From Candidatus Niyogibacteria bacterium (GTDB lineage: Bacteria; Patescibacteriota; Minisyncoccia; HO2-45-28), in assembly GCA_016432485.1 (NCBI GenBank), contig CP066691.1, forward strand, positions 740,944-804,943: a stretch of 64,000 nucleotides of DNA. The letters run 5' to 3'. This document shows, piece after piece, positions 11 through 12,341 of the stretch. The position numbers and the translations under genes are program-made. Every line of letters begins with the position of its first letter. Positions within the stretch are counted from its first letter, which is position 1. The notes below the pieces were generated by a model, which saw only the letters and a list, made by a program, of their open reading frames with translations, was not told the DNA's origin and searched no databases.

Positions 11-1525
11 TTGGAAAAACTGGGTTCAGTCGAAGAAGTTTTAAAGATGCTTAAAGCGAGGCCTTATAAGTTTGACAGGCGAGTTGGAGAAGGCATAAGC
101 ATTTTTAATCCCGGAGACAAACCGGTCTGGAGTGCCGCTGAAGGAGTGCCCGTAGAGGGGTTTTCCGCTAATAGGCAAATTCAAGACAAGCTTGACGAAA
201 TTTTCGGTCCGAATGCCGTTAGATATGTTTTTTCTCCCTTGGCCAAGACGAATGGCGGGATATACGTTTTAATGGATATTAAGGCGCATAATAAGGAGAG
301 GTTTCTGGAGCTTCATAACGTAATTTCGGAAGGCGTGCGAAAGGTGGGAGACGTGGAAGAGTGCATAAATTCATTCTTTTTTGCTCTGATGAATCCGGAA
401 GATAAAGCGGTTATTGAAGAAGCGAAGATGGAGTCTTTCCAGGGAAGGATACACTATAACAAAATTCCCTACGTTTTGGAACCGGCCACAGAAGTTAATA
501 TTTATCGCAGCGTATTTGGGCGGTCAATAGACAAACATTTTTTACCGAGGGTTCTAGATAATTTTGCCAGAGTCATAATTTCCGGGCGCATGAACACGGA
601 ATGTGAGACCTTGAAAGGGTGGATTCCGAACCTTAAAAAATACGATATTTACTGTGATAAAGACGGTCTTTTGTTGAGAATGGAAATATACGGCGGGGTT
701 ATCCCGACATGGCTTTCCGAGGAAGAAAAAAAGAAGTTTACGGCGTCCGTTAGAAGGAGTCTGATCGCCGAGGGAGAAAAAGAGGGAAACAAGGGGTTTT
801 CCGGCAGGGACTCAATTGGTCTTTTCAACAGTTTCCTCGTTATTTATGGGGGAAGGTTGGGCTTGATTAACATGGAAAATGTCGTTGACTTCTTTAAAGA
901 CAAGATAGGAAAAGAACGTCGGGATAAGAATATACCAAAAGAATTTCTCGCTTCTCTCCTGGGCTCGTACGATTACGCTGTTTTAGGCGAAGTAAAAGAA
1001 GCCCTTTATTTTTACAATACGGATCAGATTCAAAAAGATATACTGAATTATCTTTGGGCCGTAAACTATGAAATTGGAAGTAAAACAAGGTGTGGATACA
1101 CGGGCGAAGAGTTGGAAGTCACGATTGATTTTTTTAAGTTGATGGCGGGCCGGATTAGCGGAGAAGAAATGACTAACACTGCGGCTCTGAAATTTGCCCA
1201 AGACATTCAGAAGAAATACGTCACCTCCATTGCCAGAGAGCGTGTCAATATCGTCGAAACAGAGCTATATAGGGAGATTTTCGGCGATTATGTTGGGAAT
1301 CTAAAGGAGAAAGTGCTGGAGCCCTTTGTCGGAAATGACAGTTTCCGGGAAGCAATAAAATCTTATGGAACCAAAGAATTTGATACTTTTGACAGGCGCC
1401 TTAGGGAACACGTGGCTTATATGATTAAGAGTCTGATGGGGAATTTCGGCTATACTCAGCAGGGCGCGAAAGAAATCTGTCTTTACGTTTTAGACAAAAA
1501 ACTGAATGATAAATTTTCTTCTTAA
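11..1525 (+). CDS. hypothetical protein; 5' end probably lies outside the window (frame open back to nt 2, first in-frame start is TTG at 11)
   Basis: 504-codon ORF followed by an intrinsic terminator; no family confidently recognised. Confidence 0.5.
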   Translation: MEKLGSVEEVLKMLKARPYKFDRRVGEGISIFNPGDKPVWSAAEGVPVEGFSANRQIQDKLDEIFGPNAVRYVFSPLAKTNGGIYVLMDIKAHNKERFLELHNVISEGVRKVGDVEECINSFFFALMNPEDKAVIEEAKMESFQGRIHYNKIPYVLEPATEVNIYRSVFGRSIDKHFLPRVLDNFARVIISGRMNTECETLKGWIPNLKKYDIYCDKDGLLLRMEIYGGVIPTWLSEEEKKKFTASVRRSLIAEGEKEGNKGFSGRDSIGLFNSFLVIYGGRLGLINMENVVDFFKDKIGKERRDKNIPKEFLASLLGSYDYAVLGEVKEALYFYNTDQIQKDILNYLWAVNYEIGSKTRCGYTGEELEVTIDFFKLMAGRISGEEMTNTAALKFAQDIQKKYVTSIARERVNIVETELYREIFGDYVGNLKEKVLEPFVGNDSFREAIKSYGTKEFDTFDRRLREHVAYMIKSLMGNFGYTQQGAKEICLYVLDKKLNDKFSS

Positions 1526-1613: not shown

Positions 1614-3149
1614 ATGGTTTATCCGTATCTGCATATAGCAAGCCACAAGGATTTAATCGGGCGCGACCGCGTTATTTACCGCGCGCTTGAAATTCTACCC
1701 GGATTTTTAAGCTGGGGGACTCTTGGCGCGGTAGTCTTTTTTTCGTGGGCTTCTCCGGTAGGCATAGCCATTTTTATAATAATTTTTGACGTCTACTGGC
1801 TGATAAAAACTTTTTATTTGTCTTTTCACCTTCGCGTGAACTGGAAAAGGCTTAAGCGTAATTTAATTATTGACTGGGAAGCGCGGCTTCAGAATTTAAA
1901 ATGGGATCATGTTTGGCAGATGGTTATACTACCGATGTATAAAGAGGATTATAAAGTTGTTGCCGAAAGTCTGGATGCTCTTTTAGGCGCAAAATGGCCC
2001 AAAGAAAAGATGATTATTGTGCTGGCCGCCGAAGAGCGCGCGAGACCCGAAACGGAAAACGCCGTTAAAAAACTGGAAGAAAATTATTCAGGCAAATTCG
2101 GTCGATTTTTGGTAACATGGCATCCTGTGGGTCTTGAGGGTGAAATTTCCGGCAAGGGCTCCAATACCGCGTGGGCTTCTAGAGAAGTTAAAGAAAAAAT
2201 AATTGACGCTGAACAAATTCCTTATGAAAATATTCTGGTTTCATCTTTTGATATAGATACACAGGTTTATCCGCAGTATTTTTTATGCCTTACTTATAAT
2301 TTTCTGGTTGCCGAAAATCCTTATCGTTCGTCATATCAGCCGGTTCCGATTTTTAATAATAATATCTGGAATACTCCGGCCTTTTCGCGGGTGGTGGCGA
2401 CCTCCGGAACTTTTTGGCAGATGATGCAGCAGGAGCGCCCGGAGCGGCTATCCACTTTTTCTTCGCATTCAATGAGTTTCAAAATGCTTGTTGATGTGGG
2501 GTTTTGGCAGAAAAATATGGTTTCTGAAGATTCTAGAATTTTTTGGAACGCCGTTTTGTTTTACGACGGCGATTACGAGGTTATGCCGCTCGCTTATCCG
2601 GTTTCAATGGACGCTAATGTCGGAAGAAGTTTGTGGCAGACGATGAAGCAGGTCTATAAACAGCAAAGACGTTGGGCTTGGGGCGTTGAAAATGTGCCGT
2701 ATCTTTTATTCGGTTTTTTGAAAAATAAAAAAATACTTTTCGCGAAAAAACTGCGTTTTATTCTTACTCAGCTTGAGGGGTTTTGGAGTCTGGCCACAAA
2801 TCCCATTTTGATTTTTATTCTTGGATGGCTGCCGTTGGTTTTAGGAGGAGATGAGTTTAATGCCACGCTTCTCTCTTATAATCTGCCGCGTATAACCAGG
2901 ATTTTGATGACTATTGCGATGCTTGGCTTGGTTGTTTCGGCTATAATTTCAACTTCTCTTTTGCCGCCGCGGCCCGCCGGAGTGAAAAAATCAAAATTCG
3001 CCCCAATGATTTTGCAGTGGCTTTTAATTCCTTTCACCATAATAATTTTTGGCGCGATTCCCGGCCTTGATTCGCAAGCGCGATTAGCTCTGGGTAAACC
3101 TCTGGGGTTTTGGGTCACGCCAAAAATACGCAAAACTGTTTTAGATTAA
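1614..3149 (+). CDS. membrane-bound processive glycosyltransferase, GT2 / cellulose-synthase-like
   Basis: multi-TM N- and C-terminal segments; QQRRWAWG matches the QxxRW motif of processive GT2 enzymes. Confidence 0.55.
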   Translation: MVYPYLHIASHKDLIGRDRVIYRALEILPGFLSWGTLGAVVFFSWASPVGIAIFIIIFDVYWLIKTFYLSFHLRVNWKRLKRNLIIDWEARLQNLKWDHVWQMVILPMYKEDYKVVAESLDALLGAKWPKEKMIIVLAAEERARPETENAVKKLEENYSGKFGRFLVTWHPVGLEGEISGKGSNTAWASREVKEKIIDAEQIPYENILVSSFDIDTQVYPQYFLCLTYNFLVAENPYRSSYQPVPIFNNNIWNTPAFSRVVATSGTFWQMMQQERPERLSTFSSHSMSFKMLVDVGFWQKNMVSEDSRIFWNAVLFYDGDYEVMPLAYPVSMDANVGRSLWQTMKQVYKQQRRWAWGVENVPYLLFGFLKNKKILFAKKLRFILTQLEGFWSLATNPILIFILGWLPLVLGGDEFNATLLSYNLPRITRILMTIAMLGLVVSAIISTSLLPPRPAGVKKSKFAPMILQWLLIPFTIIIFGAIPGLDSQARLALGKPLGFWVTPKIRKTVLD

Positions 3150-3191
3150 CAATTAAACCAGCAAACAGCGTTATAAACAGCATTACTAATA

Positions 3192-3215
3192 ATTAACATT
3201 CACTTACGGCCGTTA
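3192..3215. repeat. left arm of perfect 24-bp inverted repeat (attaacattcacttacggccgtta)
   Basis: exact reverse complement of 3843-3866; brackets ORF 3237-3827. Confidence 0.85.
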
Positions 3216-3236
3216 ACCTGTGTTATTGTAAAGTCT

Positions 3237-3827
3237 ATGGCTAGTAAAAAGGGAAAAATCGCTAGAATCAGAAAAAGCGTCTTAAAGTCAACCGTTTTGG
3301 AGGTTTTGAACGCTCTTGGTGAGGCGTCTATTGAAATTATTGATCAGGGTTTCCTTAATCCAAAATATGCTTTTACCCACCCAACCAGAGAACTCCTGGG
3401 TTTAAATAAAAAATATAAATATTACAGCGCAGAAGAACGTAAAAATCTGTTTGCTGTGGTTGTAAGCCGTCTTCAAAAAGAAGGTCTTATTGAGAAGTTA
3501 ACGACAAAAAAAGGAATGTTGTGGAAAATTAATTCCAAAGGGTTAAGTTTTTTAGAAAACCATGACGGACTTTATAAATTGCCTCCAAAAGACGGCAAAA
3601 CCCGCATTTTTAGTTTTGATGTTCCGGAAAAGGAGAGGTGGAAAAGAGACAGACTGAGAACCATCCTGGTTTCTTGCGGTTATGAAATGCTTCAGCAAAG
3701 TCTCTGGATGGGAGAGAGTCCCATGCCCGCCAAGGTTTTTGACGAATTAAAATCTTTGAATCTAATGTCTAAGATTCACTTTTTTGAAGTTTCTAAAAAG
3801 GGCACGCTTAAACAAATTAATATTTGA
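3237..3827 (+). CDS. wHTH + Cas2/VapD-like domain protein (standalone, no cas neighbours)
   Basis: N-terminal ~100 aa looks like a winged helix (VLKSTVLEVLNALGE). C-terminal RIFSFDVPEKERWKRDRLRTILVSCGYEMLQQSLWMGE...IHFFEV matches the Cas2 beta1-Asp / basic helix / SVF pattern. Confidence 0.5.
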   Translation: MASKKGKIARIRKSVLKSTVLEVLNALGEASIEIIDQGFLNPKYAFTHPTRELLGLNKKYKYYSAEERKNLFAVVVSRLQKEGLIEKLTTKKGMLWKINSKGLSFLENHDGLYKLPPKDGKTRIFSFDVPEKERWKRDRLRTILVSCGYEMLQQSLWMGESPMPAKVFDELKSLNLMSKIHFFEVSKKGTLKQINI

Positions 3828-3842
3828 CTATTTAACATTCGA

Positions 3843-3866
3843 TAACGGCCGTAAGTGAATGTTAAT
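3843..3866. repeat. right arm of perfect 24-bp inverted repeat
   Basis: reverse complement of 3192-3215. Confidence 0.85.
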
Positions 3867-3909
3867 AAAGATATTTCCATCATGTTTTTAGGGTAAGAAC
3901 GGGACGCCT

Positions 3910-6006
3910 TTACTCAAAATGAAGATTTTCAAAGCGAGGCACAAGCGATTTGAGCGCGGGATAATTTTTTAATTCAAAGTCCTTTTGCAAAAGTTTTTGT
4001 GCTTCCAATCTCGCGGCTTCAACCATTTTTATATTCTTCAGGGCCTCCATTCCGATATCCGAAATGCCCCACTGTTTTGAGCCCGAAAGCTCTCCGGGTC
4101 CGCGAAATTGCAAATCGTATTCGGCAAGCTCAAATCCTGTATTCGCATCAGTCAGCGCTTTAAGGCGGGCTAGAGTTTTTTGAGAAGGGGATTCGGTAAA
4201 AATAAAACAATACGCCTGGTGAGTGCTTCTTAAAATTCGTCCGCGAAGCTGATGCAATTGCGCAAGGCCAAAGCGCTCCGCGCCCTCAATCATAATAATT
4301 GTGGCATTAGGCACGTTTACGCCCACCTCAATTACTGAAGTCGCCACGAGTATTTTAGTTTTATTTTCTCTGAACGAGTTCATCTCTTTCTCTTTTTCTT
4401 TGGGTGTCATTTTGCCGTGGAGTATTCCGATTTCAAATTCGGGGAAGATACTCGCGGAAAGTTTTTTATGTTCCTCCTTTACGGATTTCATCTCAAGAGA
4501 TATTTTTTTTGCGGCAACAGAATTTTCTTCAATGCGCGGGCATACGACATACGCCTGGCGTCCTTGCGAAATTTCCGCGCGCATTTGCTCGTAAGCGCGG
4601 GCGCGCTGGCTCGGAGGCACTATGACCGTTATCACTTTTTTTCTTCCCGGCGGCATTTCATCCAGTATTGTCAGGTCTAGGTCGCCGTAAATAGTCAGCG
4701 CCAGCGTTCTCGGTATCGGAGTGGCGGTCATGCTTAAAAGATGTGGCGTGGATTTTTGGGCGAGCATTGCCCTTTGATTGACTCCGAAGCGATGCTGTTC
4801 ATCTATCACAACCAAACCAAGGTTCCTGAATTTTATTTTATCCTGAATAAGCGCGTGCGTTCCGATTAGAATCGGCACTTGCCCGGACCCGACGAATTTA
4901 ATGAGCTGGCTCCGGCTTAAATGGGTGTCTTTTGCGGGGTATGCTTTTGAGGGAAATTTGCGGAATTCCGCCGATGTGGCGAGCGCCACCGCCAAGCGAT
5001 AGTTTCGGAACCGCTCTATGAATTCCTGGTAGAGTTGACGCGCCAAAACCTCGGTCGGCGCCATATAGGCCACTTGTTTTCCGTTTGAGGCCGCGGCGTA
5101 CGAGGCTATGGCCGCGATGACAGTTTTTCCGGAGCCGACATCTCCTTCCAAAAGGCGCGACATCGGTTTGGAGTAGCTTATGTCCGCCAATATCGCGGCC
5201 ACGGATTTTTCCTGCGCCGAAGTTAGGGCATACGGAAGAGACGACCGGAATTCTTTTATTTTTTCTTGGTCAATATTTATGGCTCCGGCTTCAAGTTTGT
5301 CGCGTTCAATCCTTTTTCTTTGGCGGTCAAGCTGTATTAAAAATATTTCTTCAAAAGCGAATCGTTTGCGCGCCGCCTCGGACATTTTTTCTTTTTTGGG
5401 CAGATGTATTGCCAGAAGCGCGGTCCTTAACGACGGCAGATTATAATTTTTCAAAATTTCCGCGGGAATCGGGTCATTTAAACCGGCCGGCAAGTTTTTT
5501 AGTATTTTTTTAATAGCGAACTGGAACCATTTTGAATGCAAACCTCTGGTTTCCGGATAAATCGGACTAAGCCCGTCTTTATTTTCTTGTTCGTATTGAA
5601 CTACGCCTTCGCGATAGTCGGGATTGGCCATGTAGAGCCCTTTTTTATTCCGCTGCACTTTTCCGGAAAATGAGTACTCTTTTTCGGGAGTTAAAATGTT
5701 GGCCATATACGGCTGGTTGAACCAGGTTATGCGAAGTGTCCCCGTGCCGTCGGACACTATCGTTTCGGCAATCGCCATTCTTCTGCGCCAGGTTTTAAGC
5801 GTTTTTGAAGATATGACACGGCCGGAAACGGCGGCTTCGTCTCCTTCCGCGAGATCGGCTGCGGCCTTGGGAATATGGAATTTTTCGTATCTGGCCGGAA
5901 AATGCCAAAGTAAATCACGCACGGTTTTAAACCCCGCGCGCTCTAAAATGTTTTTTTGTTTTTCGGTCAGGCGGAGATGATTATTTAAGGCGTCGTTAAA
6001 ATCCAT
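3910..6006 (-). CDS. recG: ATP-dependent DNA helicase RecG
   Basis: GDVGSGKT Walker A, DEQHRFGV, helicase C motifs, N-terminal wedge domain; 698 aa. Confidence 0.9.
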   Translation of the reverse strand: MDFNDALNNHLRLTEKQKNILERAGFKTVRDLLWHFPARYEKFHIPKAAADLAEGDEAAVSGRVISSKTLKTWRRRMAIAETIVSDGTGTLRITWFNQPYMANILTPEKEYSFSGKVQRNKKGLYMANPDYREGVVQYEQENKDGLSPIYPETRGLHSKWFQFAIKKILKNLPAGLNDPIPAEILKNYNLPSLRTALLAIHLPKKEKMSEAARKRFAFEEIFLIQLDRQRKRIERDKLEAGAINIDQEKIKEFRSSLPYALTSAQEKSVAAILADISYSKPMSRLLEGDVGSGKTVIAAIASYAAASNGKQVAYMAPTEVLARQLYQEFIERFRNYRLAVALATSAEFRKFPSKAYPAKDTHLSRSQLIKFVGSGQVPILIGTHALIQDKIKFRNLGLVVIDEQHRFGVNQRAMLAQKSTPHLLSMTATPIPRTLALTIYGDLDLTILDEMPPGRKKVITVIVPPSQRARAYEQMRAEISQGRQAYVVCPRIEENSVAAKKISLEMKSVKEEHKKLSASIFPEFEIGILHGKMTPKEKEKEMNSFRENKTKILVATSVIEVGVNVPNATIIMIEGAERFGLAQLHQLRGRILRSTHQAYCFIFTESPSQKTLARLKALTDANTGFELAEYDLQFRGPGELSGSKQWGISDIGMEALKNIKMVEAARLEAQKLLQKDFELKNYPALKSLVPRFENLHFE

Positions 6007-6008
6007 TG

Positions 6009-6080
6009 TGCCCTCGAGAGGAATCGAACCTCTATTACAAGCTCCGCAAGCTTGCGTCCTGTCCGTTGAACGACGAGGGC
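6009..6080 (-). tRNA. tRNA-Arg; anticodon reads as GCG, which is uncommon and should be verified
   Basis: cloverleaf folded by hand: acceptor GCCCTCG/CGAGGGC, T-loop TTCGATT, anticodon stem CAAGC/GCTTG with loop TTGCGGA. Confidence 0.6.
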
Positions 6081-6096
6081 CTCACACCTGCTTGGT

Positions 6097-6351
6097 TTAA
6101 GTAATACAACCTTTAATTCTTCTTTTCAACTGTAAATATGCGTTGCCCCTTAATTTTATACTATATTCTCTGTGTTTTGCATTATTTTCATTACAATAAG
6201 CTTCATAATAAACAAGTTGCCACCCGCCTCTGTTTTTGGTTGATAGCACTTCGTTGGAGTTGTGTTGTGTAAATCTTTTCTTAAGATCACTAGTGTAACC
6301 AAAATATAAATTGTCGTTTTTGGTGTTTTTCAAAATATAAAAATAATACAT
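6097..6351 (-). CDS. GIY-YIG nuclease domain protein (stand-alone, 84 aa)
   Basis: YFYILKN...LYFGYTSDLKKRFTQH matches GIY-YIG core; directly abuts tRNA-Arg. Confidence 0.7.
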   Translation of the reverse strand: MYYFYILKNTKNDNLYFGYTSDLKKRFTQHNSNEVLSTKNRGGWQLVYYEAYCNENNAKHREYSIKLRGNAYLQLKRRIKGCIT

Positions 6352-6382
6352 AAGTCAAGTAGGTGTGAGGCCGAGGGCATTT

Positions 6383-6865
6383 CTAAAAACCAAGACGCTC
6401 AGCGATTATTTCCGAAAGCGATTCTTTGGTTTCTTCTTCTTTCAAGGCGCGGCCGATGATAGCTCGTATTTCATTAGGGTCGGCCGACCCGAGCGGCAAT
6501 ATAAATCGAGACATTAGAACTCTTTTTGATATTATTTCAAGCTCTTTTTTTCGCGGCGGCTCGTATTTTATCCAGAATGACCGCAAGGATTCATACGGAT
6601 AAAATCTGTCGGCAATTTGAACGCCCCGGGCGTTTATTATAAATTTTATTGTCCGCGGCCTTTTCGCGCCGTAAAGCGCTATGGTAAATCCGGCAAGCAC
6701 AATAAAACTAGCAAAAAGAATGTTTTTGATCAACAAAGCGACGATAGCCAGAGCCAGCGTAAAAACGCCCAAAATCCAAAACCACTCCGCGGATTTCGGC
6801 GCGTGTTCGTATTCTGGCGCCGACCACAAAACGGAATTACTGTCCATAATATAAATATAACGCAA
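6383..6865 (-). CDS. hypothetical membrane protein (2 TM)
   Basis: ORF with hydrophobic segments; no family recognised. Confidence 0.5.
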   Translation of the reverse strand: MRYIYIMDSNSVLWSAPEYEHAPKSAEWFWILGVFTLALAIVALLIKNILFASFIVLAGFTIALYGAKRPRTIKFIINARGVQIADRFYPYESLRSFWIKYEPPRKKELEIISKRVLMSRFILPLGSADPNEIRAIIGRALKEEETKESLSEIIAERLGF

Positions 6866-6888
6866 CCGGCGAAAAGAAAAAGCCCGGC

Positions 6889-7293
6889 TTATTGGCCGAG
6901 CAACTCTTCAATCAGTTTTTTTTCTTCCAAAATCTTTTGAACTTCTCGTTTCTGTTCGTCAGCCATTTCTTTAAATCTTAGTTTTGGAAAAAACAGAATT
7001 GTATCATTGGGGCATGATGAGCCCTCAACATTCCCACTGATTGTATAGCGAACCAATACGCGGTCCCGGTTCTCGGCAATGATGGTGATTTTGCCGCCGG
7101 TTTTAAGATGGCACATGTCCCCGTAGGCAAATTCGTCGGGCCCGTTTTTTATCGGTTTTAGATTTTTTACGATTACCAGTTCCGGCGAGGTGACTTTTAT
7201 GGTATCACCCTTTTTTATTTCAGACGTGGCGCCGGAGGTGGCGAGCGCGAAGAGACCGACAATTAACGATATCAGCCAGACCTCTTTTTTCAT
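6889..7293 (-). CDS. hypothetical secreted protein (signal peptide)
   Basis: N-terminal MKKEVWLISLIVGLFALATSGA signal-like segment. Confidence 0.5.
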   Translation of the reverse strand: MKKEVWLISLIVGLFALATSGATSEIKKGDTIKVTSPELVIVKNLKPIKNGPDEFAYGDMCHLKTGGKITIIAENRDRVLVRYTISGNVEGSSCPNDTILFFPKLRFKEMADEQKREVQKILEEKKLIEELLGQ

Positions 7294-7790
7294 TTGGCAC
7301 CTCTTTTGCGGTCGGGTTTTATTGACACCTGATTATCCCCGCCCGTTATTGCGTGCTTGGCAATTTTCACGTTGGGGAATAATTTCACAATAATTCGTCT
7401 CAGCACTCGATTTCTTCGTTCAATTTTCAGTTCGCCATTGATGAAATCTTTGGGAAGCATGTCTGTATCGGTTAGGGTAATTGTCCGAATAAAGTGTTCT
7501 TCGCCGATAAATTCTTCAAAGCAGAGTCGTCCAAAATGTAGCATGCCGCTGTCTTTGTAGAAATTATCCCGGCGGGTCGGTTCCAAGCCAGGAATCAATG
7601 ACACCATAAGCTTTTGAAGCTCTTCCATCTTGAAAGTGCCCTTTACGGGAGCTACATGGCAATAAACAATTTGGCTATAGCAAGTAAATTCAGTTGACAA
7701 GTGCTCTGACAGAACGGTTTCAAAAAATATCTTTTTATTTCTCTTAAGCGCATCTAGTATCTTCGAGTATTTGGTCGCGGGCTTGCTCAC
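7290..7790 (-). CDS. hypothetical protein
   Basis: 166-aa ORF, 4-nt overlap with downstream gene suggests operon. Confidence 0.45.
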   Translation of the reverse strand: MSKPATKYSKILDALKRNKKIFFETVLSEHLSTEFTCYSQIVYCHVAPVKGTFKMEELQKLMVSLIPGLEPTRRDNFYKDSGMLHFGRLCFEEFIGEEHFIRTITLTDTDMLPKDFINGELKIERRNRVLRRIIVKLFPNVKIAKHAITGGDNQVSIKPDRKRGAK

Positions 7791-7926
7791 CTTTTCTCCT
7801 TTTCGGGTTTTTGGTTTTCAATATCCGAGGCAATTATGGCATAGCGTATATAAAAAATCAAGCGCTTGACCGGAGCGGAAAGGAGGATTTCAAGTTTTTC
7901 GCGGGCGTTAGCCCGCTAACAAAATC

Positions 7927-8667
7927 TTACAGATTTTGTTCTTTGACGGCAAATTCTTTTTTGGTACTGTCAAAATTAATAAAAAATATTATGGATACAA
8001 CCGTAAAGAATGAGTATACAACATCAATTAGTGTGTCTGTTGCAATACTTGTAGCAAAGTTATCGGGTAGAAACCAATAAGGCACTCCTGCAATAACTCC
8101 AACAATCAACCCCAATAACCCAAATACTAAAGAGTATCCGGCGACTTTCCACCACCTACCTTTTACAATGGCCTTACTATAATCTAAAGCACTTTTTCCA
8201 GATTTGTCTTGCAAGACAACAATATACAATACGAATGACCAGTAAACATAGTAGATAATTCCTGGAATTATTAACAATAATGTTAATCCCAATAAAAAGA
8301 TACCAAACAAGATATTAGTTCCTATTGCTGCTGGCCATCTAGACATGGATTTTTTAAGTGCTTGGCCAAAACTGATTGTTTGCCCATCTATCTTGGATTT
8401 AATAATATACGCAATTGCCATTGATGCGATTATTCCAATTAAGCCCTCAAAAATCTGAATAACTTTCATGTAAATCTTAAAACCCCGCAAAGTGCCCCAT
8501 TGTTCCATTAATGCATCAATGGGAATAAAAGCCAATATAATATTAACCGGTATGTAAACAACTAAAGTTATTAGCAAAATTAACTGAAAATTTTCTTTAA
8601 ATTTCTTCCAAGATTCTGAAAGAATTTTCCCAATAGTATATTCTTTATTATAGATTTCTTGTTCCAT
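7927..8667 (-). CDS. hypothetical polytopic membrane protein
   Basis: ~6 predicted TM helices; co-directional with and immediately downstream of XRE regulator. Confidence 0.55.
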   Translation of the reverse strand: MEQEIYNKEYTIGKILSESWKKFKENFQLILLITLVVYIPVNIILAFIPIDALMEQWGTLRGFKIYMKVIQIFEGLIGIIASMAIAYIIKSKIDGQTISFGQALKKSMSRWPAAIGTNILFGIFLLGLTLLLIIPGIIYYVYWSFVLYIVVLQDKSGKSALDYSKAIVKGRWWKVAGYSLVFGLLGLIVGVIAGVPYWFLPDNFATSIATDTLIDVVYSFFTVVSIIFFINFDSTKKEFAVKEQNL

Positions 8668-8687
8668 ATTTTTAGGTTAGTTAATTA

Positions 8688-8894
8688 TTATTTTAACAAA
8701 TCCTCTATATTAACATCAAGCGCCCTAGCGATCTTCGCCATAGTTTGGACGCTCGGCTTATTAACTGTGCCACTTTCGACCTTCATAAGCGTTGTATATT
8801 TAATATCAGCTTTCTTGGCTAAATCGTCTTGGGTTAAGCCAAGTTTAGCGCGTAATTTCCTGATATTCCCGCTGATTGTTTTTCCACTTATCAT
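8688..8894 (-). CDS. XRE-family HTH transcriptional regulator
   Basis: LGLTQDDLAKKADIKYTTLMKVESG...ARALDV is a Cro/C1-type HTH. Confidence 0.75.
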   Translation of the reverse strand: MISGKTISGNIRKLRAKLGLTQDDLAKKADIKYTTLMKVESGTVNKPSVQTMAKIARALDVNIEDLLK

Positions 8895-9395
8895 ATAAAT
8901 AAAGTTTTGGTAGTATTATGATATATGAGAATTTTATCTCTAATGTAATACCACCAAATAAAATGAATTTAATCAATAAAAATTCGAAAAGCCCGCTTCT
9001 GGCCTTACTGAATTCAAAACGGCTTGAAATTTCCCCGAAAAACGGCTGGCGAGCCCGCGTAGCGGGCGAGCCAATGACTTCATTTCCTAACTGGCGGGGA
9101 CGATGTCCGCAACTTTGAACCGGTGGTATCCCGCAAAACCATTAGTTTTGCTCGTACGGATAAAATTATATGCAAACTGCGACGAATATACAAAGAAAAT
9201 CCTGCCTCTTTTGATATTCCTATTTTTGCCCAAAAACAGTATTAAACACCCTCTCCACTTCTTTGCCAGACAGCTTTGAGCCCGCAAGACGAGTTGATGC
9301 GCCTGTGGAGGTTATCAGAGTGACACGACGAAGTTCCGCCAATCTTTCTGGTGAAATACCAGAAAGCTTTTTGATAGATTTAGGATTTTTCATGT

Positions 9396-9881
9396 CTATT
9401 TTTTTAATTTTGTCCTAAATATTTTAACTTGCTCGAGGTCATGCTCAATTGGGCTGCGCGCCATTTCAATTTTTTCTCCCTCCATTTCATCTTCGGCGTT
9501 CTCTTCCAGGGCATCAAATTCCTTAAGGCTTTGTTCTAGCTCCTGCTGTCGTTGTGCAAGTAACTCATCGGCCTTAGTCGGATCAATATCAATGATAGAA
9601 ATTTCAGGGCTTGAATCGTAGTATTCCGCCATTGCATTATCATCGTAATCAAAATCAGCCGGGTCTATCTTCTCCGGTATTTTTGAACTGTCATAGAGTC
9701 CTTTTTTAATTTTTGGCGTTCCATCCGTATCAAATACTAGACTAGTAAGCAAACGCCTTCCTTCCGGAACTGTAGTATCTACTCCGAGTTGCTCCGATCG
9801 AAATTTTATTCCCCCATGAAATCTTCCCTCTTTTTGTTCTAACTTTGAACGAGAATCGGGGGCTTGCTCAGGATTTTCCAT
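9396..9881 (-). CDS. hypothetical acidic protein
   Basis: 161-aa ORF, D/E-rich C-terminal half; no family recognised. Confidence 0.45.
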   Translation of the reverse strand: MENPEQAPDSRSKLEQKEGRFHGGIKFRSEQLGVDTTVPEGRRLLTSLVFDTDGTPKIKKGLYDSSKIPEKIDPADFDYDDNAMAEYYDSSPEISIIDIDPTKADELLAQRQQELEQSLKEFDALEENAEDEMEGEKIEMARSPIEHDLEQVKIFRTKLKK

Positions 9882-10025
9882 ATATTTATATTAAGTTAAA
9901 GTATTATAAATGTAAATCTTTCTTGTATAGTTCGAATCCCTTCAGGGTTCTTACATTTTACCACTTTCCCATTTTGAAATGTTGCGTAAAATAAGGGAAT
10001 TTTTACTGCTATTTTCTAAAACTAC

Positions 10026-10115
10026 TGGCGGAGACGGGAGGATTCGAACCTCCGGTACCCTTTCGGATACTCCGGTTTTCAAGACCGGTGCCTTCAACCG
10101 CTCAGCCACGTCTCC
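10026..10115 (-). tRNA. tRNA-Ser(TGA), class II with long variable arm, CCA encoded
   Basis: GGAGACG acceptor, anticodon stem CCGGT/ACCGG loop CTTGAAA, T-loop TTCGAAT. Confidence 0.8.
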
Positions 10116-10119
10116 CTAT

Positions 10120-10419
10120 TTATTGCACAAGCAATTTTTGAAGTTCTGCGGGAAGGTTATTTTGGATGCCCTGCGTTTGGTTTAATGTTCCCAACAACCC
10201 TTGATATAAATTCAAAACGTTATTGAGATAGGGCTGTATCTGCCAGAAGCCAAGGATGGTCAGGGCAATTATAACGACCCATTTTGCCGTTTTCAAGGCC
10301 CTTTGCCAAAAAATCCTCCGTTCCATTTTTTTCACTATGCCGAGAACTTTTCGCGACAGCTCCAGGTTTTCCGTCAATAATTTTCGTTCGTCATCACCCA
10401 TTATTAGATTATAAAACAA
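10120..10419 (-). CDS. hypothetical small membrane protein
   Basis: 99-aa ORF with one TM; weak support. Confidence 0.3.
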   Translation of the reverse strand: MFYNLIMGDDERKLLTENLELSRKVLGIVKKMERRIFWQRALKTAKWVVIIALTILGFWQIQPYLNNVLNLYQGLLGTLNQTQGIQNNLPAELQKLLVQ

Positions 10420-10805
10420 AAGCCGGCCCCAAAAAAGAAGCCGGCTGGTTTCGCGCGTTTAGTTCAGTCGAAAGACTTTTTAACCGCTCTATATACTGTT
10501 ACCGATGCCGCAGAAACACATACCACAATCATAAATACTGAAAAAATAAAAATTACGTAAGTATTTTCCAAAAACCGTTTGAGATTCTTTTTGTTCATTT
10601 GACCTCCCTACCCCCTCTCTTGATTGGAAATGTGCTACTCGGCTAACAGTCTAGCACTATGTTTAATGAATTGTCAAACGAAAACAGAAACTCTTTCGAG
10701 TTTTTGTTTTCAAAAAATTAAGATGAAAAAATTTCTTTTGCTCTCATTGATAAATCTTTTTCCTTTTCGCCAAAAAAAGCCCTTTCAAATCGTGAAGTTT
10801 CTATT

Positions 10806-10868
10806 GGCGGAGGGGGTGGGATTCGAACCCACGCGAGGCTTTTTAGACCCCCACGGATTAGTCCCGCA
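10806..10868 (-). pseudogene. 3' fragment (~60 nt) of a class-II (Ser-like) tRNA, lacking acceptor 5' strand and D-arm
   Basis: contains partial anticodon loop, long variable arm, T-arm GTGGG/TTCGAAT/CCCAC, acceptor 3' CCCCTCC-G-CCA; no matching 5' half upstream. Confidence 0.6.
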
Positions 10869-10872
10869 AGAA

Positions 10873-10964
10873 TGGCGGTGGGTAGAGGATTCGAACCTCT
10901 GTGGCGCTTTTTACACGCCCGTGGATTAGCAATCCACTGCTTTAAGCCGCTCAGCCAACCCACC
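10873..10964 (-). tRNA. tRNA-Ser(GCT), class II, CCA encoded
   Basis: acceptor GGTGGGT/ACCCACC, anticodon stem GTGGA/TCCAC loop TTGCTAA, long variable arm, T-loop TTCGAAT. Confidence 0.75.
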
Positions 10965-11160
10965 GCCATTCCGACGGGATCCTCGAAAAATATATTCGCT
11001 TCACTCGTTATTTTTCGGGACAATCCGCTCCGTTAAACCGCTCCGGCACGCTTCCAAGTTCTTTTGAATCATACAAAAATTATCGTTTGGCGGCAACTTT
11101 TTCTTACCTCGCAACCAGGTAGTGAAAATCCGACTAATTGATTTTGCTCGCGCCGGATTT

Positions 11161-11379
11161 TTATTTGTTTCTAAAGTCGGATTCTTTTAGTCCCGACTGA
11201 AGTAAAATTGACCGAAAAGTCCCATACGGAATTTGCTTTTTGGCCATTTTCACGATGACAGTTTTTGCTGGTGAATCAAGTTTACGAAACTTAGCATGCG
11301 CGCCTTTCTGCGAAACGAAAAAGAAGCCCTTAACTTTAAGAACTCTAATAATAATTCTTAAATCTACCGGTTTAGGCAT
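11161..11379 (-). CDS. hicA: type II toxin HicA (YcfA-like mRNA interferase)
   Basis: VLKVKGFFFVSQKGAHAKFRK...IPYGTFRSILLQSGL matches HicA family. Confidence 0.75.
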   Translation of the reverse strand: MPKPVDLRIIIRVLKVKGFFFVSQKGAHAKFRKLDSPAKTVIVKMAKKQIPYGTFRSILLQSGLKESDFRNK

Positions 11380-11590
11380 GCTGGAGTTCCAGCGGAATTA
11401 TATCAGGTCGTTCCACACTAGATGCTTTGGAAAAAGGAATGTCTTCAAAATATAGTTCTAACGCTTCCCGCAAAGCTTCAAAAGCTTTTTTCCTGGTGTC
11501 GCCAAAGCTGGAAATTCCCGTATTTAGATTCCACGAAACATAATTTTTGCCTTCTTTCCAGATAACATTTTTTAAAATGATTTTACGCAT
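11372..11590 (-). CDS. hicB: antitoxin HicB (UPF0150-type N-terminal domain)
   Basis: overlaps hicA by 8 nt; NYVSWNLNTGISSFGDTRKKAFEALREALELY matches HicB N-domain. Confidence 0.7.
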   Translation of the reverse strand: MRKIILKNVIWKEGKNYVSWNLNTGISSFGDTRKKAFEALREALELYFEDIPFSKASSVERPDIIPLELQHA

Positions 11591-11657
11591 ACGATTATAT
11601 TCCCAATTATATAATAAAAGGAAAACAAGTCAAAGCCACAATGTATTCCGAAATTCA

Positions 11658-12341
11658 CTACCTGGCGACCGCCGCGCAGATTATTTTTTTAACTCCGGCT
11701 TTTTTTAAAACGCGGCCAGCTTCTGCCATTGTCGCGCCCGTAGTATAAATATCGTCCACTATGACGGCAAATTTCGGCGGAGAAAAGTTTTCTTTAAGCG
11801 CGAAAACCCCTTTAATATTTTCCAGGCGTTCGGCGCGGTTTTTAATTTCGGCCTGCGGTTTTGTTTCGCGGACTTTAATCAAAATAGGCGAGTGTTCAAG
11901 ATTTAAAATTCTTGCCAGATGGCAAGCCAAAAGTTCGGCCTGATTAAAACCGCGGGCTCTTTTTCTTCGCTCGGTCATTGGAATGGCGGCAATGATCGGC
12001 TTGAGATCGTATTTTAGATACGGTCTCAAGTCTTGAGCCATTATTTCAGCAAGCTCCTCGGCAATGTCGCTAGCCGATGAATATTTTAATTTACGCAAAG
12101 CCATTTTTATTGCCGGCTCGCGGTAAGAAAAAGAGGTCAAGGCGAAATCCATATTTTTCGGATAGAAAATGTCGGGATCGCGGATTTCCGTCAGGCATTT
12201 CAAACACAAGTACTTTCCTTTTGCGCCGCAGCTGAAACAGGAACGCGGGAATAGAATTTCTGCCAAAAAAGCCCAAATTTTATGGGGACTAAGGATGCGT
12301 TGCGCGCGTAATATTGATTTGTGGATAAACAATGGCATCAA
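11658..12341 (-). CDS. comFC: ComF-family protein (phosphoribosyltransferase-like competence protein)
   Basis: N-terminal CFSC...CLKC zinc finger, C-terminal PRTase motif VIVDDIYTTGATM. Confidence 0.8.
   Translation of the reverse strand: MMPLFIHKSILRAQRILSPHKIWAFLAEILFPRSCFSCGAKGKYLCLKCLTEIRDPDIFYPKNMDFALTSFSYREPAIKMALRKLKYSSASDIAEELAEIMAQDLRPYLKYDLKPIIAAIPMTERRKRARGFNQAELLACHLARILNLEHSPILIKVRETKPQAEIKNRAERLENIKGVFALKENFSPPKFAVIVDDIYTTGATMAEAGRVLKKAGVKKIICAAVAR

Follow-up and report, generated by a model that had tools for sequence, protein, structure and literature searches.

A gene flanked by two palindromic sites

We analyzed a 64-kb stretch of DNA (the window) from Candidatus Niyogibacteria, an ultra-small bacterium of the Candidate Phyla Radiation (CPR), in which a single open reading frame (ORF) of 196 codons, here called ORF X, is flanked on either side by a near-palindrome of 34 bp. 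The encoded protein consists of a winged helix followed by a Cas2-like domain, and the unit is most likely a conserved self-regulating cassette, whose layout recurs in most of about 89 related loci, and no transposon. As for its mechanism, ORF X probably encodes a minimal PaaX-type autorepressor with two flanking operators, O1 upstream and O2 downstream of the gene. The ORF X protein is 100% identical to HYY55_04140 from a metagenome-assembled genome of Candidatus Niyogibacteria.

An initial annotation of this DNA had described a perfect 24-nt inverted repeat around one ORF of 196 codons, wedged between a GT2-like gene and recG. All of these elements were found: the left arm (ATTAACATTCACTTACGGCCGTTA) spans 3192-3215, the right arm, its exact reverse complement, spans 3843-3866, a single ORF is enclosed between them, and profile matches identify the GT2-like gene on one side and recG on the other (Table 1). 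As a description of terminal repeats, however, this picture was incomplete; the arms are real, but they belong to two separate near-palindromes. Each 24-nt arm is half of its own 34-nt near-palindrome centered on CGGCCG, giving four related half-sites (TAACA-N7-ACGG) in O1 (TTAACATTCACTTACGG/CCGTTAACCTGTGTTAT) and O2 (TTAACATTCGATAACGG/CCGTAAGTGAATGTTAA). O2 begins 5 nt past the stop codon of ORF X, and the centers of the two sites are 639 bp apart. No other copy of the 24-nt arm occurs in the window at up to 3 mismatches (0 of 100 shuffles gave a match), and no further full site was found there even when 2 mismatches were allowed. A search of the window for half-sites recovered all four together with one lone extra at 62715, with 0.29 expected by chance. 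This additional half-site (TAACAATCTCGAACGG, 62715-62730, minus strand) fits TAACA-N7-ACGG and is within chance, the shuffle maximum being 2.

Conservation of the palindromes among related loci

The comparative set comprised the loci of 89 relatives with 27 to 86% protein identity, and these were scanned for 34-nt palindromes with a CGRYCG center, either upstream within about 200 nt of the start codon or downstream from -13 to about +160 nt of the stop codon. Such a palindrome is present upstream in 74 of 82 assessable loci, downstream in 71 of 84, and on both sides in 58 of 77; the background is low, as the rest of the window yields merely weak palindrome matches (10-11/17). The spacing between the O1 and O2 centers ranges from 592 to 809 bp among the relatives, with a median of 680 bp.

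Three zones can be distinguished within each half-site. Positions 0 to 5 form a lineage-specific outer arm, in which self-complementarity is 94 to 97%, except for 88% at the outermost base, and in which the two sites of a locus almost always agree. Positions 6 to 12 form an AT-rich spacer, which is 64 to 88% self-complementary and is the main place where the two sites of a locus differ. Positions 13 to 16 form the core ACGR, in which C and G reach 100% by construction of the scan, whereas the preceding A is the majority base (67%, 150/224 half-sites) at a position that is paired in 94%. Sites that belong to one locus agree at 28.4 of 34 positions, compared with 15.5 of 34 for sites of different loci. 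The central hexamer is CGATCG in 79 of 112 sites, CGGCCG in 22, and a hybrid (CGACCG or CGGTCG) in 11, and the center type is identical at both sites in 50 of 56 loci; an independent reading of the two central bases per half-site, which we had considered, was softened in view of the rarity of hybrid centers. The sites co-vary with protein lineage. Loci with the same arms share recognition-helix sequences, and this co-variation of helix and arm is inseparable from shared ancestry. Paired cognate palindromes with a shared core and lineage-specific arms predict a testable protein-DNA recognition code, and the family would offer a natural set of orthogonal repressor/operator pairs.

The family is large. 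At E ≤ 1e-10 it comprises 1,659 clusters (50% identity), and of the 150 best matches listed, nearly all are 135 to 242 amino acids (aa) long. Its members are inconsistently annotated, their names varying with the data source between "hypothetical," "Cas2," and "PaaX." No published description of the family or of its bracketing palindromes was found in a literature search of limited reach, which is no proof of absence.

We also scanned a GTDB collection that leaves out the source genome with the pattern AACA-N5-T-N-ACGGCCGT-N-A-N5-TGTT. Among 25 matches, only 3 adjoin an X-like gene and four, from Chloroflexota, are internal to a conserved coding sequence; a perfect hairpin, whatever its sequence, raises the number of chance matches to a palindromic pattern of this kind. 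A single related GTDB genome (L022, Saccharibacteria) had both sites fitting the pattern: there, TAACA...ACGGCCGT...TGTTA sites flank a gene whose product is 28% identical to the ORF X protein, and they are the sole two pattern matches in the assembly.

The ORF X protein combines a winged helix with a Cas2-like domain

The initial annotation had assigned a Cas2-like fold to the C-terminal half of the protein and a winged helix to its N terminus, and had proposed a structural comparison with Cas2 and PaaX; both assignments are borne out. Residues 117 to 190 match PaaX_M (Pfam PF20803, "PaaX protein central Cas2-like domain") with an E value of 2.8e-13 and 50.2 bits against a cut-off of 24. The cas2 model TIGR01573 is matched just above its cut-off (24.9 versus 24.5), although only residues 123 to 159 align, to model positions 3 to 40. 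The AlphaFold2 model (predicted local distance difference test score, 73.8) shows a winged helix and then a β-α-β-β-α-β domain. In Foldseek searches, its best PDB match is PaaX of E. coli W (8A39; E value of 4e-5 over 178 columns), followed by the PaaX-like protein of Jannaschia (3L09), MarR-type winged helices, and Cas2 chains. The winged-helix half matches the PaaX N-terminal domain, MarR, TubR, and other winged helix-turn-helix proteins, and the Cas2 matches, from S. pyogenes and E. faecalis, have 22 to 27% identity over about 75 residues with E values of 0.04 to 0.1. PDB sequence searches with the single protein or with the family profile gave nothing useful; the fold search alone recovered both PaaX and Cas2. 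Residues F127, D128, P130, E131, L140, R141, L144, and S155 are invariant in relatives down to 18 to 28% identity.

The protein is nevertheless neither PaaX proper nor Cas2 proper. It shares with PaaX the order of winged helix and central Cas2-like domain, but it has 196 residues and no PaaX_C, compared with 316 residues in PaaX; it ends 6 residues past the PaaX_M match, so that about 125 C-terminal residues are missing relative to the alignment with E. coli PaaX. We place it outside PaaX proper because it has no PaaX_C, because no paa genes are nearby (the neighbors are PrkA-like, GT2, RecG, and GIY-YIG genes), and because its score against the PaaX equivalog model TIGR02277 (NCBIfam; residues 74 to 189 aligned) is far below the cut-off, at 27.4 versus 264.55 bits. 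PF07848 was not reported in ORF X by hmmscan, while the Foldseek alignment to 8A39 spans the N-terminal domain. Moreover, the protein keeps the Cas2-type FD[VI]PE motif and basic helix, and E. coli PaaX has neither.

With Cas2 it shares the β-α-β-β-α-β ferredoxin fold and the Asp at the end of β1, and it differs in that this domain is fused to a DNA-binding winged helix. We place it outside Cas2 proper as well, since neither cas1 nor an array accompanies it and the profile match is partial. No CRISPR array was found in the window, in line with the initial annotation, which had seen none nearby, and no cas gene was found among the five profiled neighbors on each side (no window-wide cas1 profile search was made); no repeat arrays were seen around the loci of the relatives. 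PADLOC Cas2 models give weak matches that are limited to the first ~40 residues of Cas2. Several other family members do pass Pfam CRISPR_Cas2 (PF09827), and one is named Cas2 by NCBI. This family shows the Cas2 fold in use well away from CRISPR and nearer in form to Cas2 itself than canonical PaaX, which bears on the kinship of Cas2, VapD, and PaaX.

Table 1. Positions in the window of ORF X, its proposed sites, and the adjoining genes
Feature	Position	Strand	Remarks
PrkA-like protein	11-1525	+	PrkA C-terminal domain (E 8e-36); adjoins the GT2-like gene on its upstream side
GT2-like gene	1614-3149		PF13632, marginal
Upstream near-palindrome, proposed operator O1	3193-3226		TTAACA-TTCACTT-ACGG/CCGT-TAACCTG-TGTTAT; includes left arm
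Putative extended -10 element	3221-3229	+	TGtTATTGT; overlaps the last O1 bases, 7 nt before ATG
ORF X	3237-3827	+	196 aa; short PaaX-like, winged helix-turn-helix plus Cas2-like domain, no PaaX_C; stop TGA 3825-3827
N-terminal winged helix	3237-3566	+	Predicted recognition helix residues 65-81 (nt 3429-3479), wing residues 85-98; AlphaFold2, Foldseek
Cas2-like ferredoxin-fold domain	3585-3806	+	Residues 117-190; PaaX_M
FDVPE motif	3615-3629	+	D128 at the Cas2 β1 Asp position; invariant
Basic helix	3627-3674	+	EKERWKRDRLRTILVS; contains KERWKRDRLR
Downstream near-palindrome, proposed operator O2	3832-3865		TTAACA-TTCGATA-ACGG/CCGT-AAGTGAA-TGTTAA; includes right arm; possibly also 3'-end hairpin
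RecG	3910-6006	-	RecG_wedge, DEAD, Helicase_C, RecG_dom3_C

Promoter geometry and proposed autorepression

CPR bacteria (Patescibacteria) have tiny genomes and few transcription factors, and little is known of their promoters and regulation. Among the related loci, 10 to 13 nt typically separate the end of the upstream site from the ATG, and a -10-like hexamer occupies this interval. In 35 of 61 loci, a TAnnnT hexamer begins at -2 to +1 relative to that edge of the upstream site which faces the gene, compared with 17 to 22 of 61 to 62 at three control edges, and it starts exactly at +1 in 17 of 61 loci, compared with 3 to 7 at the control edges. The gap between hexamer and start codon is 6 to 7 nt in about 12 loci, that of the window included; this spacing corresponds to the geometry of a leaderless mRNA and therefore suggests that the transcript is leaderless or nearly so. 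The family would in this way point indirectly to leaderless promoters in CPR.

In E. coli, PaaX recognizes a pair of inverted hexamers that lie far apart (TGATTC-N27-GAATCA), and its autorepression works by exclusion of RNA polymerase from the promoter (PMC9493321). The proposed operator of ORF X resembles this one in its hexamer-N22-hexamer arrangement over a putative promoter, and differs from it in the added core ACGRYCGT and in the second proposed operator, which lies after the stop codon and so brackets the gene. In the mechanism that we propose, the Cas2-like domain most likely forms a dimer, as in PaaX, but with no C-terminal effector-binding domain, and this dimer would recognize the 34-bp palindrome. 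The two winged helices may read the lineage-specific outer hexamers (TTAACA/TGTTAA, 22 bp apart), while the center of the dimer, possibly through the basic helix KERWKRDRLR, may read the family-wide core. O1 appears to cover the -35 region and spacer of the gene's own promoter, whose putative -10 element, TATTGT (3224-3229), is followed 7 nt on by the ATG, and a bound dimer would extend from about -46 to -13. Given this position of O1 over the promoter, bound protein would be expected to block RNA polymerase, and the gene would repress itself. O2, the unusual part of the cassette, might loop with O1 across the intervening gene (639 bp), or it might serve as a roadblock or hairpin that marks or insulates the 3' end, a hairpin there being in line with the more perfect palindromes of the downstream sites. 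This mechanism builds on what the analysis shows directly: the domain composition of the protein, the presence of the two sites, and their conservation, position, and co-variation with the protein lineage. It also agrees with the symmetry of the sites, which is unlike that of terminal repeats, and with the small number of targets, there being no further full site in the window and, in L022, no pattern matches other than the two at the gene.

Small dimeric repressors with palindromic sites at their own gene are familiar from the antitoxin operators of toxin-antitoxin systems and from the C-proteins of restriction-modification systems. In lac (O1/O2) and gal (OE/OI), a second site several hundred base pairs off, within or after a coding region, can strengthen repression by looping. 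ORF X differs from these controller circuits and looped repressors in having no associated toxin, restriction, or metabolic gene, and in that the second site of the family is consistently just past the stop codon; looping might strengthen repression here as well.

Several observations weigh against an autorepressor with duplex operators. A repressor that has no sensor and whose visible targets only flank its own gene brings no obvious benefit to the cell; such self-only targeting suggests either that the Cas2-like domain has an effector role or that further sites exist in the remaining 92% of the source genome, of which our search for additional sites covered 7.6%. A generic sigma-70 scan found no promoter at this position, and CPR promoters are uncharacterized. 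In addition, perfect AACA-N7-ACGGCCGT-N7-TGTT palindromes are found just past housekeeping genes in CPR genomes with no X-like gene within 8 kb (GTDB loci L018, L020, L021, L025, L026, L029, L030, L036, L023, and L032); the genes that precede them encode, among others, an RluD-type pseudouridine synthase, an HD-domain protein, and a holA-like product, and identical or near-identical copies lie on separate contigs of one genome (L021/L025, Vogelbacteria; L023/L032). These palindromes might serve as remote operators; they might otherwise be generic hairpins or belong to a dispersed repeat. The symmetry of the sites is also greater than expected: many palindromes of the relatives are perfect (17/17) and give hairpins of -23 to -28 kcal/mol, the self-complementarity of the spacer is left unexplained when only arms and core are read, and the two sites of a locus differ by 50 compensatory double changes, versus 140 one-sided changes that break a pair. 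The excess symmetry of the spacer possibly reflects an added hairpin or cruciform role, or homogenization within the palindrome.

Operators, hairpins, and effector modules

The same symmetry leads to an alternative that we regard as unlikely, namely that the palindromes act as nucleic-acid hairpins instead of, or besides, duplex operators, and that the protein binds or cleaves them in a post-transcriptional form of self-control. The upstream hairpin would then terminate or insulate read-through from the GT2-like gene or sit in the 5' untranslated region, and the ORF X mRNA would have the downstream hairpin at its 3' end. The strong hairpins of many relatives, which are formed by perfect palindromes of 34 to 44 nt (z -8 to -10), agree with this proposal, as do the excess of compensatory substitutions (50 of 76 two-sided changes between the sites of a locus), the more perfect palindromes downstream than upstream (29 loci versus 13), and the invariant center, which would make a GRYC tetraloop closed by C-G. 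The protein itself joins a winged helix to the Cas2 fold, which is RRM-like, and both Cas2 and VapD proteins have been reported as ribonucleases. In the window, however, O1 folds no better than shuffled sequence (-4.2 kcal/mol, z +0.4) and O2 only weakly so (-9.0 kcal/mol, z -1.8); the changes that break pairs outnumber the compensatory ones, as given above, and the position of the upstream site, with the -10-like hexamer between it and the ATG, places it outside a leaderless transcript. A scan of 2900-4200 found no terminator-like site, and neither palindrome has a T-run.

Plain intrinsic terminators were rejected on the last of these grounds and on the weakness of the hairpins in the window's copy. 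The initial annotation had offered paired operator/terminator hairpins as one explanation; its operator half is favored by the comparative data, whereas its terminator half is weak in view of the folding energies and the missing T-run. Because O1 of the window is so poor a hairpin, recognition of the duplex, and not folding, appears to be the common denominator of the sites, which agrees with the autorepressor that we prefer.

Self-only targeting would also suit a toxin-like or defense-like effector module that regulates itself, in which the winged helix and the two operators tightly repress a Cas2/VapD-like nuclease domain, much as in the controllers of toxin-antitoxin or restriction-modification systems that have operators solely at their own genes. 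We judge this to be quite improbable. Its detectable sites flank the gene itself only, protein-operator pairs diverge fast between lineages, as expected with very few targets, and the FD[VI]PE motif is kept throughout the range in which it is invariant (to 18 to 28% identity) and lost in E. coli PaaX, and the CRISPR_Cas2 matches and the Cas2 name noted above point the same way. On the other hand, conservation of the Asp may be structural, the PADLOC matches are weak and confined to the start of Cas2, no partner gene (antitoxin or immunity) and no conserved neighbor accompanies the gene, and the gene is vertically inherited, chromosomal, and not found in mobile-element collections.

A broader proposal, to which we give only a slight chance, is that of a hitherto unrecognized CPR-wide class of winged-helix-Cas2 proteins, each locked to a pair of palindromes of the size of CRISPR repeats at its own gene, the Cas2-like dimer being a functional nucleic-acid module and not just a scaffold. 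In such a class, the invariant Asp motif and the basic helix would read or cut the ACGRYCGT center or an extruded hairpin. If true, the cassette would be a self-contained selfish or defense-type element, or it would represent a surviving intermediate form that links PaaX-type regulators with stand-alone Cas2/VapD nucleases.

The cassette does not behave as a mobile element

The perfect 24-nt inverted repeat around a single small gene had raised the possibility of a minimal insertion sequence (IS) or miniature inverted-repeat transposable element (MITE) with cargo. More generally, the 675-bp unit could be, or could have been, mobile or rearranging, whether as an IS/MITE-like element, as a member of the IS200/IS605 or REP-RAYT type (repetitive extragenic palindromes and their associated tyrosine transposases), or as a hin/hix-type inverton with the Cas2-like protein as nuclease or recombinase. 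We consider such a reading highly improbable, and it is already largely refuted. The initial annotation had seen no obvious target-site duplication and no recognizable transposase, and both statements hold: no duplication is found at the outer edges of the inverted repeat (left flank ...ctaata, right flank aaagat...), and the ORF X protein matches no transposase, recombinase, or HUH family, even though its invariant D128, E131, R141, and S155 could be catalytic. The gene is single copy in the window and in every related locus. Thus, the minimal IS or MITE is not borne out, with no duplication, no transposase, one copy in 64 kb, and synteny that is kept.

Genes lying between palindromic sites are known from hixL-hin-hixR and REP-RAYT-REP, to which the palindromes on both sides of ORF X give a superficial likeness. 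The cassette differs from these in that it has no recombinase or HUH fold, no inversion variants, no dispersed repeats in the window, and no fixed site orientation. An IS200/IS605 or REP-RAYT origin was rejected, as there is no Y1_Tnp match, an HxH triplet occurs in one homolog and is not conserved, and the window has two sites. A Hin-type inverton was likewise rejected, there being no recombinase domain, and eight independent assemblies of the source organism are all colinear with the window and include no inverted variant. A phage or plasmid origin was rejected too, with no relatives in IMG/VR, INPHARED phages, or PLSDB.

Distant relatives do differ in their gene neighborhood, and the flanks evolve more slowly than the gene and, above all, than its operator regions, as would also be expected of a mobile unit; between L044 and L048, for instance, the flanks are 90 to 100% identical, the gene about 80%, and the operator regions 30 to 50% with indels. 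Nevertheless, the order GT2-X-recG is kept in relatives with 69 to 86% X identity, whose neighbors are similarly diverged (GT2 at 75 to 83% identity upstream and, in one case, recG at 83% downstream after two extra genes), and in L038 nucleotide homology continues without a break from GT2 across the left palindrome and on into the gene. When all loci were compared with one another, no two had the unit in common but flanks that were unrelated. The two sites keep no fixed orientation to each other, 10 loci having direct, 9 inverted, and 37 ambiguous sites, and comparisons of outer with outer, inner with inner, and crossed half-sites all give about 14/17; the perfect 24-nt "terminal" repeat of the window therefore reflects a local coincidence among four half-sites that resemble one another. 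These results correct a tempting misannotation of the unit as a transposon or as CRISPR related.

Variant arrangements and genomic context

The bracketing of the gene varies among some relatives. In L006 (sites at 2073-2106 and 3338-3371), the second site lies past an extra 139-aa gene of unknown family, so that the bracket takes in two genes. Upstream of the gene, L043/L044 carry a tandem pair of sites, and the same AGATTGAAT..ATG comes after each of them (sites at 2864, 2954, and 3553), further variants occur in L047/L048 (984-1017 and 1477-1510), and L107 has a third site (3923-3956). Some near-identical copies also lose homology abruptly: L070/L077 do so at about codon 8, L060/L072 within the gene, and L055/L056 581 nt upstream, and L077 lacks both palindromes; such breaks may be strain rearrangements or assembly chimeras. 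In L002 (4-632), the GT2 gene folds back on itself, residues 294 to 374 (minus strand) being joined to residues 373 to 510 (plus strand), which is probably a chimera of assembly or amplification unrelated to the palindromes.

An exact DnaA-box 9-mer (TTATCCACA) is about 25-fold enriched just past the downstream palindrome of the relatives, with 12 copies in the 250 nt past the stop codon (73 unique loci, ~18 kb) compared with 8 in the other ~300 kb; in these loci none lies upstream and none within the gene. The boxes occur 18 to 205 nt past the stop codon in L060/L072, L065, L066, L068, L071, L091, L094, L096, L099, L103, and L112. Exact boxes in the window are at 12320, 42003, and 43697 only, and none is beside ORF X. 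The enrichment could reflect proximity to the origin or DnaA-controlled downstream promoters. In this subgroup, a conserved pair of genes on the same strand follows X (L065, 3859-6538; L071, 791-1801; L094, 1098-2657; L104, 3561-4962). The first encodes a protein of about 190 to 220 aa that is read as membrane associated, and the second a large protein, read as secreted, that begins ...AY(G/D)xETHAYLT... and has a Lamin Tail Domain match in L065; in the DnaA-box lineage, the downstream operator may control this pair.

The neighbors of the gene in other relatives are varied housekeeping or envelope genes. In the window, the convergent arrangement of genes had suggested a replication terminus or fork trap of the Tus-Ter or RTP-like kind; this was rejected, as both sides have a positive GC skew and the block of minus-strand genes at 3.9 to 12.3 kb is only a local island. 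The block (3910-12341) has a locally reversed GC skew within plus-strand, positive-skew surroundings, and it contains RecG, a GIY-YIG protein (6097-6351), several unknown small proteins, and an Xre-type helix-turn-helix protein (8688-8894).

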